A stretch of 64,000 nucleotides of DNA from Escherichia coli (GCF_003334305.1 NZ_QOWS01000014.1), one strand, 5' to 3'. Numbered from the stretch's first letter, positions 9,065-10,942 are shown. The notes: generated by a model from the sequence alone, not told the origin. Translations and numbers: made by a program.

Positions 9065-10942
9065 TTACGGTTCAGGGATACAAGCCACATTGCCATATTG
9101 GGGATGACGAATAATTGCCTGCGGATCAAGCGAGCGCGTCCTGTCCATTTGGATCAACCCGTTCTTCGCCATGACAAATATTTTTCTACCATCCGCTGAA
9201 AAACGAAGGTGATTAACGTAGCTGGCAGGATAAACGCCAATAATCTGCCCGGCATTAATATTGAGCAGGATGACATAACCTTGCAGGCCATATGACACCA
9301 ACGCTAAATATTGACCGTCCGGGCTAATACCCTCAACGGAATAAACGCTCCTGCTACACCATTGCGTCATAATGCTGGCTTGTTGATCCCCTACGCTTAT
9401 ACGTGAAATCCCCTGACTATCGGCAAAAATAACCTCGCCGTTTTCAGGTCGAAAACGCATCGCCGATATCGTTCCACGCGCATCACCTGCGGGAAAGTCT
9501 TCTTTCTGATGCGTGATGGTATTGATCCGCACGATGTTACCTCTGCCTGCTCCCGGAACCAGTAATGTTCTTTCATCCGGGGAAAGTGCCATAACCCAGG
9601 CGCCTGGTTTACCGCTCGTCCCCGTCCCGTCGTATTTCTCCAGCGGGATATCCGCCACATGCTGATAAGTCACCAGATCAATCGCTGACACACTATTACT
9701 GGTGCGATTCATCACCCAGGCTTTTGTGCCATCACGCGAGAGGATAAAACTGTCAGGATGTGCACCGGTGGTAATCGACTGAATAATCTCCCCTGTCGCC
9801 ACGTTAATGACCGATAACGCATTCGCTTCAAATGACGTCGCATAAATCAACTTTTCATCCGGGCTTAATGCCAGCGATCTGACGCCCTGATCTTTACAGC
9901 CACCACAATGTTTGACTGACTTTTCTTTCGCTATGGGCGCTGTAAAGGTATGCAGGATTTTCTTTTGTCCGAGGTCGAAAACAACAATGCTGTTGGTGTT
10001 TTCAATTGCGGCATACAACGTATTACCATCCCGACTGATCGCCATATCATGGATATCGGCAATCTCAGCGAGTAAATCACCACTGGCCTGTTCACGACTT
10101 ACCGGAGCGGATAATGTTTCCCTGAGGGCGTTGCGTTCCTCCGCTAACTGTTGTTTTTTTTGTCGTCGCTCTTGTTCAATCTCCTGCGGATAAAACGCTT
10201 CACGCAGGCTTTGCCTGACCTGTAAAACTGACTCATCCATCTGCTGCTGCGCAAGCCAGATAGCCCCGGTCAGAAGAAGACTGCCCGCAACAATAATCCC
10301 GCCTTCCGTAACGAGTCGGTTTTGCCCAGATAAACGCGCGCTCAGCCAACCCAACGCGCCACCCGCAATCAGGCCGCCAATGTGGCAAGCGTTATCTATT
10401 CCTGTTTGCCGGGCACCGTACAACAGTGTCAGCGCCACCATACCCAACAGAGTAAATACTCGCCGCTGGTTTTTATGGTATGTGCCCGTACCTGAAGCAA
10501 ACTGTGTTGCTATCGCTGCACCAGCTATTCCCAGAATCGCCCCGGATGCCCCAACGCTGATGACTATCTGCTCACTTTCGCGTAACGCATAACAGGCGCT
10601 GATGAGCCCACCAAAGACGCCGGAGAATAACCAGGTAATCAGGAGTCGCCATTTCCCCAGAATCTGTTCCGCCACGCCTCCCACGACCAGGAATGCAAAC
10701 ATATTCATCAGCAGATGAGAAACACTACTGTGCAGAAAGATACTGCTCAATAAGCGCCAGGGTTCACCCGACAAAGTAAGAGGCGCAACGTTTGCACCGA
10801 GATGGATAAGTGCGGATTGATCGACCTCTTCATAACTCATCCATTGTGCGAGATAACAAAATATCCCAATACAGAGTGCAAAAAGGATAAGGGTTATTGC
10901 GGGTAATTGAACATTTAACGGCTTAACCGAAGATGCAGACAT
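9065..10942 (-). CDS. Rhomboid-family intramembrane serine protease core fused to an extra TM helix, charged linker and seven-repeat beta-propeller (625 aa)
   Basis: ATG at 10942 with GGAAG about 9 nt upstream. N-terminal part has rhomboid motifs: WRLLSSIFLHSSVSHLLMNM, GASGAILG (Ser133), ACHIGGLIAGG (His187), then a seventh hydrophobic helix. C-terminal part has seven S-x-D-G-type repeats about 42-58 aa apart. Confidence 0.8.
   Translation of the reverse strand: MSASSVKPLNVQLPAITLILFALCIGIFCYLAQWMSYEEVDQSALIHLGANVAPLTLSGEPWRLLSSIFLHSSVSHLLMNMFAFLVVGGVAEQILGKWRLLITWLFSGVFGGLISACYALRESEQIVISVGASGAILGIAGAAIATQFASGTGTYHKNQRRVFTLLGMVALTLLYGARQTGIDNACHIGGLIAGGALGWLSARLSGQNRLVTEGGIIVAGSLLLTGAIWLAQQQMDESVLQVRQSLREAFYPQEIEQERRQKKQQLAEERNALRETLSAPVSREQASGDLLAEIADIHDMAISRDGNTLYAAIENTNSIVVFDLGQKKILHTFTAPIAKEKSVKHCGGCKDQGVRSLALSPDEKLIYATSFEANALSVINVATGEIIQSITTGAHPDSFILSRDGTKAWVMNRTSNSVSAIDLVTYQHVADIPLEKYDGTGTSGKPGAWVMALSPDERTLLVPGAGRGNIVRINTITHQKEDFPAGDARGTISAMRFRPENGEVIFADSQGISRISVGDQQASIMTQWCSRSVYSVEGISPDGQYLALVSYGLQGYVILLNINAGQIIGVYPASYVNHLRFSADGRKIFVMAKNGLIQMDRTRSLDPQAIIRHPQYGNVACIPEP

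Follow-up and report, generated by a model that had tools for sequence, protein, structure and literature searches.

A Rhom7 orthologue of Escherichia coli with a predicted seven-bladed beta-propeller behind its rhomboid protease core

Between the genes lnt and gltI of Escherichia coli, a stretch of 64,000 nucleotides (GCF_003334305.1 NZ_QOWS01000014.1; hereafter the window) carries a minus-strand open reading frame in which a rhomboid-like membrane domain is followed by a long repetitive C-terminal part. A reading of the sequence alone had taken it for an orphan rhomboid without assigned function. The locus thus raises the question of what this protein is, what its C-terminal domain might contribute, and how the gene comes to be present in some strains and absent from others. 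We consider it highly probable, taking the explanation as a whole, that the protein is orthologous to Shigella sonnei Rhom7, that it acts as a protease of orphaned transmembrane domains (TMDs), that its propeller would serve as a docking module in the periplasm, and that the gene is ancestral and has been lost from about 40% of strains.

The coding sequence and the one structured element next to it are the following.

9065-10942, minus strand: rhom7 coding sequence, orthologue of S. sonnei Rhom7 / SSON_0610 (ATG start, 625 codons plus TAA stop; from the ORF listing)
9038-9058, no strand assigned: GC-rich hairpin between the convergent genes lnt and rhom7 (terminator scan, RNA fold)

The ORF is 100% identical to the RefSeq CDS WP_097343967.1, annotated as 'rhomboid family intramembrane serine protease', a name also borne by 24 of 24 full-length matches that were sampled. 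It is convergent with lnt (7449-8987, plus strand) and divergent from gltI (plus strand, start at about 11397), and its GC content of 0.47-0.54 is ordinary for the region. The hairpin folds as minus-strand RNA with -23.4 kcal/mol (z = -2.9); it resembles a terminator of lnt, because its T-run lies on the plus strand. A consensus sigma-70 promoter was not found upstream of rhom7 on the minus strand, which is weak evidence in keeping with the low native expression published for S. sonnei Rhom7.

The identity of the protein follows from its comparison with S. sonnei. Measured against two S. sonnei entries rather than against the deposited Q3Z4D6 sequence, the window protein shares 619 of 625 residues (99%) with the first (P0003) and is likewise 99% identical to the second (P0007). 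An S. sonnei contig (L028) displays the order gltL-K-J-I, rhomboid, lnt-corC-ybeY-phoH, and the gene order in the window and in E. coli strain A7 is the same. The corresponding S. sonnei gene, SSON_0610, encodes Rhom7, a protein with seven predicted TMDs and with Ser133 and His187 as potential catalytic residues (Liu et al., EMBO J 2020, PMC7232013). Near-identity, locus, the numbering of Ser133 and His187, seven TMDs and the presence of a C-terminal domain are all shared with the Rhom7 group. Because of the identity of 619 of 625 residues, the common slot between gltI and lnt and the matching numbering of the dyad, the window ORF is, as judged from sequence and locus, orthologous to Rhom7. 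Both the gene and the activity of its product are already known from the literature, as are the catalytic residues, and its annotation in RefSeq is routine. The label of an orphan without assigned function does not hold and is corrected here to Rhom7, published in 2020; through this orthologue, the gene had largely been characterised already.

The N-terminal third of the protein accounts for the protease.

10328-10942, minus strand: rhomboid core, aa 1-205, six predicted TM helices (Pfam, AlphaFold2, hydropathy and K/R distribution, GlpG matches in the PDB)
10544-10546, minus strand: codon of catalytic Ser133 (G-A-S-G)
10382-10384, minus strand: codon of catalytic His187 (H-x-G-G-x3-G)

In a profile search, Pfam Rhomboid PF01694 matches aa 59-201 (E = 1.3e-27, 97 bits), and a check at codon level recovers the motifs W62-R63, H71-x4-H76-x3-N80, G131-A-S133-G134 and H187-I-G189-G190-x3-G194. 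The rhomboid hallmarks therefore stand, codon by codon, in the order that the sequence-only reading had given. One detail of it needs amendment: His187 and the G-G-x3-G that follows are as described, but the residue in front of the histidine is Cys186, with alanine at 185, so that the motif begins with A-C-H. The WR, H-x3-N, GxSG and His187 motifs are invariant or nearly so among 21 homologues, Ser133 being invariant in all 21 and His187 throughout the homologue alignment. In the AlphaFold2 (AF2) model, built from a 21-sequence family alignment with a mean pLDDT of 81.8, the core helices occupy aa 15-34, 62-69/74-95, 97-122, 132-149, 152-178 and 184-203, and 12 residues precede TM1. Aa 13-205 align by sequence search to structures of GlpG in the PDB (2ic8 and 2nr9, E = 8e-11 to 1e-4, with H. 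influenzae GlpG at 8e-11), in agreement with a six-helix core. Profile, motifs and six-TM core together place the protein among the rhomboid intramembrane serine proteases (PF01694, MEROPS S54). By its sequence it is a rhomboid of the active type, the catalytic residues being Ser133 and His187; the activity itself has been shown in the S. sonnei protein of 99% identity.

The published experiments on that protein offer a greater level of detail about what such a protease cuts. S. sonnei Rhom7 cleaves a model substrate based on TatA, and its S133A and H187A variants are inactive (PMC7232013). When encoded on a plasmid, it cuts the TMDs of HybA, HybO and FdnH, the cleavage of FdnH requiring a conserved proline in the TMD (PMC7232013). 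Full-length FdnH is processed only without its partner FdnI, and full-length HybA and FdnH are generally cut only when orphaned from their partners in the respiratory complexes (PMC7232013). The reported function is quality control of unassembled membrane proteins, because cleavage is restricted to orphaned subunits; a 2025 review, in which Rhom7 appears as UniProt Q3Z4D6, gives its function as 'protein quality control'. By analogy with the S. sonnei orthologue, in which this has been shown, the Ser133/His187 dyad within the six-helix core of the window protein would cut single-pass TMDs that carry a helix-destabilising proline. From the chromosomal gene of S. sonnei, cleavage was undetectable, including that of HybA and FdnH, which was attributed to low expression, and a glpG rhom7 double mutant displayed no phenotype in growth, Biolog, oxidative-stress and T3SS assays (PMC7232013).

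Behind the core, the chain continues with a further helix and a connecting segment.

10244-10318, minus strand: seventh TM helix, aa 209-233 (AF2 helix; hydropathy peak at 209-234)
10079-10243, minus strand: charged helical stalk with a conserved P-V-S-x-E-x-A-x-G motif, aa 234-288 (AF2, family alignment)

The AF2 model places TM7 at aa 209-233, close to the seventh helix at about aa 210-232 that had been proposed from sequence alone. The loop in front of it, RLSGQNR, bears positive charge, as would suit a position in the cytoplasm, and K/R residues sit in the TM2-3, TM4-5 and TM6-7 loops. By homology with GlpG, we infer that TM6 ends in the cytoplasm, and TM7 would then return the chain from the cytoplasm to the periplasm. 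This predicted topology, with TM7 present in the model and the K/R residues distributed as described, supports the earlier claim that the C-terminal part lies on the opposite side of the membrane. The stalk comprises helices at aa 237-250 and 253-276, and A286 and G288 at its end are invariant across the rhomboid-propeller family. With a length of some 50 residues, it would hold the following domain above that side of the membrane at which the active site opens, and the domain would thus face the side where ectodomains of type I substrates project.

This last domain makes up more than half of the protein.

9068-10078, minus strand: predicted periplasmic seven-bladed YVTN-type beta-propeller plus C-terminal tail, aa 289-625 (AF2, Foldseek, phmmer, TIGR02276)

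In a Pfam search, the propeller families THOC3, Lactonase and YncE match aa ~297-611, and the NCBIfam model TIGR02276 for the YVTN repeat reaches 58.4 bits, above its cut-off of 27.85, with two matching stretches. The AF2 model displays seven times four strands within aa 289-600, with pLDDT mostly at 80-95, and the ring is closed by the N-terminal strand 289-292, which completes the last blade. The best PDB match of the domain in Foldseek is the YVTN propeller 1l0q_A (E = 2.5e-17, 21% identity), and seven-bladed propellers in the PDB reach TM-scores of 0.54-0.79 when normalised to target length. A phmmer search against the PDB leads to 1l0q as well (E = 9e-25), with the alignment repeated over its blades. 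A strong YVTN sequence signature is kept only in blades 2-3 (aa ~355-435). When the propeller alone was searched against 1.84 billion representative proteins, the matches were confined to its own family and to giant generic multi-YVTN proteins, the latter reached mainly via blades 2-3. The C-terminal domain is hence predicted to be a seven-bladed propeller of the YVTN type; Pfam, TIGR02276, AF2 and Foldseek agree here with the seven-repeat, YVTN/lactonase-like propeller of the sequence-only reading. Literature searches for a link between bacterial rhomboids and a propeller returned nothing relevant, and in the Rhom7 paper the word 'propeller' is absent and the fold of the C-terminal domain is unnamed (PMC7232013).

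Four cysteines of this domain, Cys346, Cys349, Cys529 and Cys621, are nearly invariant across the family. In the homologues of K. aerogenes, C346 and C349 are lost together. The loop that holds them has a pLDDT below 50 in the AF2 model. Because the four cysteines are conserved and one pair is lost jointly, two disulfides in an oxidising compartment would fit, and they probably stabilise the propeller there.

A Rhom7 without TM7 and the C-terminal domain still cleaves the model substrate, unaffected by the truncation (PMC7232013), and the propeller would hence not be needed for catalysis as such. Most likely, it would serve in the periplasm to dock or select substrates or partner proteins by their folded periplasmic domains, a role that would parallel that of the TPR domain exported by rhomboids of the GluP type. 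Two observations speak against docking, namely the equal cleavage of the model substrate by the truncated protein (PMC7232013) and the lack of any neighbouring gene conserved among distant homologues.

The main rival to docking regards the propeller as a regulatory or sensor domain, which would keep the protease silent or badly positioned until a periplasmic ligand, a redox change or envelope stress is perceived; the true substrates would then not be HybA and FdnH, whose cleavage would be confined to over-expression. Undetectable cleavage of these two proteins by native Rhom7 and a C-terminal domain that is dispensable for catalysis on the model substrate (both PMC7232013) would agree with such a control, as would the conserved CxxC-like pair C346/C349, which could respond to redox in its flexible propeller loop. 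The upstream region, in which the sigma-70 consensus was not found, likewise fits a conditional expression. However, no ligand-binding signature was found in the domain, and its relatives outside the family are generic multi-YVTN surface proteins. The K. aerogenes homologues without C346 and C349 retain the rest of the protein, and the low native activity was put down to low expression, not to inhibition (PMC7232013). We regard a sensor role as rather improbable, and docking in the periplasm as the preferred role of the propeller.

As to the distribution of the gene among strains, the relevant segment extends beyond the coding sequence.

8982-11151, no strand assigned: segment found only in the haplotype that carries rhom7 (K-12 locus compared with the window by blastn)

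By megablast, 3238 of the 5426 complete E. coli genomes (about 60%) carry rhom7, and at least 80% of the gene is retained in 3232 of these 3238 carriers. At every locus examined, it lies between gltI and lnt. In genomes of the K-12 type, a 154-bp REP-like spacer replaces window positions 8982-11151. K-12 itself lacks the gene, in agreement with the sequence-only reading, which had set this architecture apart from K-12. This spacer occurs in 2186 genomes, and spacer and gene carriers together amount to 5424 of 5426, so that E. coli is divided into two mutually exclusive haplotypes. IS5 as the cause of the absence from K-12 was considered and rejected, as IS5D lies in the upstream region of gltI (window about 11290-11297), separate from the spacer.

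Outside E. coli, E. whittamii and a cryptic Escherichia clade (Escherichia sp. MOD1) have rhom7 in this slot as well, at 91-92% protein identity by tblastn. K. aerogenes carries a same-slot homologue with 49% protein identity, in which the catalytic residues are invariant, and the 90%-identity cluster of the window protein also contains proteins of E. fergusonii and S. flexneri. Since the slot is the same in E. whittamii, the cryptic clade and K. aerogenes, presence is most likely ancestral and the K-12 type a loss. Recent horizontal acquisition is rejected on the same grounds and on those of the ordinary GC content. As one type of spacer is found in all 2186 genomes, one or a few old losses are indicated, rather than continuing decay.

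The window allele was compared with five further E. coli alleles, all of which have 625 intact codons. The genes next to rhom7 have a dS similar to its own value of 0.05-0.17; its dN/dS over the whole gene is 0.14-0.24. Core, TM7/linker and propeller have similar dN/dS, where the segments held enough differences to measure. For lnt, gltI and gltJ, dN/dS is 0.01-0.17, mostly below 0.08, and corC has no non-synonymous differences. This indicates that rhom7 is under purifying selection, which is laxer than that on the adjacent housekeeping genes, and the weaker selection in turn explains the unusually wide range of 90-100% nucleotide identity. Diversifying selection behind the classes of 90-95% nucleotide identity is rejected, as dS equals that of the neighbours and dN/dS stays at 0.14-0.24. 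One allele (L008) combines a diverged core with an identical propeller, pointing at recombination within rhom7.

These values also bear on the possibility that rhom7 is a dispensable relic undergoing loss, retained neutrally in 60% of strains. The gene is lacking from about 40% of complete genomes, among them well-adapted lineages such as K-12, its mutant in S. sonnei is without phenotype (PMC7232013), and its dN/dS exceeds that of the genes on either side several-fold, all of which speaks for this reading. Yet dN/dS is far below 1 in every domain, the five further alleles are intact throughout, and nearly all carriers (the 3232 of 3238 mentioned above) keep the bulk of the gene, which moreover occupies the same slot in E. 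whittamii and, at 49% identity and with invariant catalytic residues, in K. aerogenes. Given these selection data, neutral decay is unlikely, and we give a relic little credence next to an ancestral gene that was lost once or a few times and is otherwise maintained.

The wider family shows how far this domain order extends. Full-length homologues with the same order are found in Budvicia aquatica (33%) and Andreprevotia (31%), further in Paraburkholderia and Trinickia (27-28%), in Pseudoduganella (about 25%) and in some metagenome sequences; this list of species is a lower bound, as the scan patterns came from the rhomboid L1 loop of an enterobacterial full-length alignment. Among the matches found, full-length homologues of the same architecture are few. 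Beyond the Rhom7 family, the nearest rhomboid cores are those of GluP-type rhomboid-TPR proteins, with 35-44% identity over the core. Conserved operon partners were sought at the distant loci of Budvicia and Andreprevotia, and none was found there. As the genes beside the distant homologues that were inspected vary from one to the next, the protein is a stand-alone unit, as the sequence-only reading had assumed of the gene.

This spread also settles whether the fusion of rhomboid and propeller might be an artefact of a frameshift, a mis-assembly or a read-through. We found no evidence in favour of it. Thousands of independent complete genomes have an annotated ORF of identical length, the domain order recurs in K. 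aerogenes, Budvicia, Andreprevotia, Paraburkholderia, Trinickia and Pseudoduganella, and the S. sonnei protein has been expressed with its C-terminal domain, from which truncations were made (PMC7232013). An artefact is excluded for practical purposes, its chance being close to nil, and the fusion is treated as a genuine feature of Rhom7.

Beyond the correction of the orphan label, three points were not found in the searchable literature. The first is the predicted C-terminal propeller on its helical stalk, together with the four conserved cysteines. The second is the division of E. coli into two haplotypes, with 3238 genomes carrying the gene and 2186 the spacer, the K-12 type being the one of loss. 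The third is purifying selection across all domains of rhom7. These additions are modest and mainly of interest to researchers working on rhomboids. Little is understood of how bacterial rhomboids choose their substrates, a choice in which the propeller suggests itself as a candidate for a part. Tentatively, and with more doubt than conviction, we suggest that the YVTN propeller gives Rhom7 a substrate range or regulation unlike that of GlpG, and that the split of about 60% to 40% reflects niche-specific selection, not neutral loss. As an example, it might, under particular conditions, recognise Tat-exported or envelope proteins by their folded domains in the periplasm. If this is true, Rhom7 would offer a natural system for how an extramembrane domain steers a rhomboid to its targets.

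Among known systems, S. sonnei Rhom7 is the closest, being the same gene in a sister lineage with a handful of substitutions; its description holds no discussion of the split between presence and absence within E. coli (PMC7232013). The second rhomboid to be compared is GlpG, the prototype of the bacterial rhomboids, next to which Rhom7 is a second such protease in many strains of E. coli and Shigella. With GlpG, the window protein shares the six-helix core, the WR loop, HxxxN, GxSG and the histidine in TM6. The N-terminal domain of GlpG is cytoplasmic, its TM helices number six, and a periplasmic domain is lacking, whereas Rhom7 has almost no N-terminal extension and adds TM7, the stalk and the propeller. 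The window protein is not GlpG, because it scores far below the cut-offs of the GlpG equivalogs (43.2 bits against 250 for TIGR04239 and 38.8 against 335 for NF008155). In Shigella, the substrates of both proteases overlap in HybA and HybO (PMC7232013). A rhombosortase was also considered and rejected, as the score for TIGR03902 is 44 bits against a cut-off of 84.

Outside the rhomboids, the best match of the C-terminal domain by structure as well as by sequence is the surface-layer propeller of Methanosarcina mazei (1l0q), which is likewise seven-bladed. Unlike the propeller of the window protein, it belongs to a surface protein of an archaeon and is not attached to a protease. AarA of Providencia stuartii, a further rhomboid, is not known to have a large C-terminal periplasmic domain. 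AarA is 30% identical to Rhom7, and the TMD of its substrate TatA is also cut by Rhom7 (PMC7232013).

A last comparison is that with the rhomboids of the GluP/YqgP type. The window protein shares their plan of 6+1 TM helices, in which TM7 exports a repeat-type domain for protein interaction. It does not belong to this type itself, as no TPR is among its Pfam matches and only 12 residues stand before TM1. YqgP of B. subtilis has an extracytoplasmic C-terminal TPR domain, and the window protein has a predicted YVTN beta-propeller instead; proteins of the GluP type have a large cytoplasmic N-terminal domain, whereas Rhom7 has none. The extracytoplasmic TPR domain of GluP/YqgP-type rhomboids is thought to dock or select substrates or partners. 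Both Rhom7 and GluP/YqgP have been linked to the quality control of membrane proteins.

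The rhom7 allele of E. coli C10 (L008, 2601-4478) is a mosaic when set beside the window allele (9065-10942). The rhomboid core (aa 1-205) stands at a synonymous divergence (dS) of 0.13, while the TM7/linker region is identical and the predicted propeller carries one synonymous difference (dS 0.004). The pairing of a diverged core with a near-identical TM7/linker and propeller points to a recombination breakpoint lying within the gene near codon 205.

Among the matches to window 9065-10942 in the E. coli genomes, one is plasmid-borne, one record reaches only 60-80% identity, and two matching places occur in at least one genome. 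In a separate set of genome contigs (genome_contigs), the hits L010 and L011 are short contigs in metagenome-assembled genomes labelled 'Collinsella sp.' and 'Proteobacteria bacterium'. Both display full-length identity of 98-99% to the E. coli rhom7 locus and are probably mis-binned E. coli contigs. In E. coli BS-01 (L003), a stretch of ~1.5 kb (1456-3000), low in complexity and rich in homopolymers, takes the place of the central part of rhom7. The ORFs in this stretch encode poly-G/P/F/K, and the adjoining lnt is flagged as incomplete. This interruption looks like an assembly error rather than a biological disruption.

A distant Rhom7-like gene in Andreprevotia chitinilytica (L015) is preceded by three tandem ORFs of ~285-290 aa each, for which no NCBIfam match was found, and is directly followed by tssF, a type VI secretion baseplate gene. 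These surroundings are absent from the other homologues examined. The flanks of this gene and two features of the K-12 MG1655 locus (L002) are located as follows.

L015 1254-3884 and 6023-7879: flanks of the Rhom7-like gene
L002 4693-4846: 154-bp spacer in place of rhom7, common to 2186 genomes
L002 3352-4546: IS5D (insH3), upstream of gltI; window counterpart ~11290-11297

The 154-bp spacer contains a REP-like palindrome (gatgccgcatccgg ... ccggcacg). Its identity among genomes falls into bands of >=99%, 95-99% and 90-95%, indicating that the spacer haplotype is old.

On the far side of gltI, the gltI-gltJ spacer (window 12306-12474) would, by position, be the counterpart of the sRNA gene sroC that is annotated in K-12 (L002 2182-2344). 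Upstream of gltI, the window carries no insertion at ~11290-11297, in contrast to K-12 MG1655, where IS5D occupies the corresponding site. Past IS5D, the K-12 sequence continues with 146 bp matching window 11297-11152, after which the 154-bp spacer starts. The deletion of rhom7 in K-12 and the insertion of IS5D are separate.
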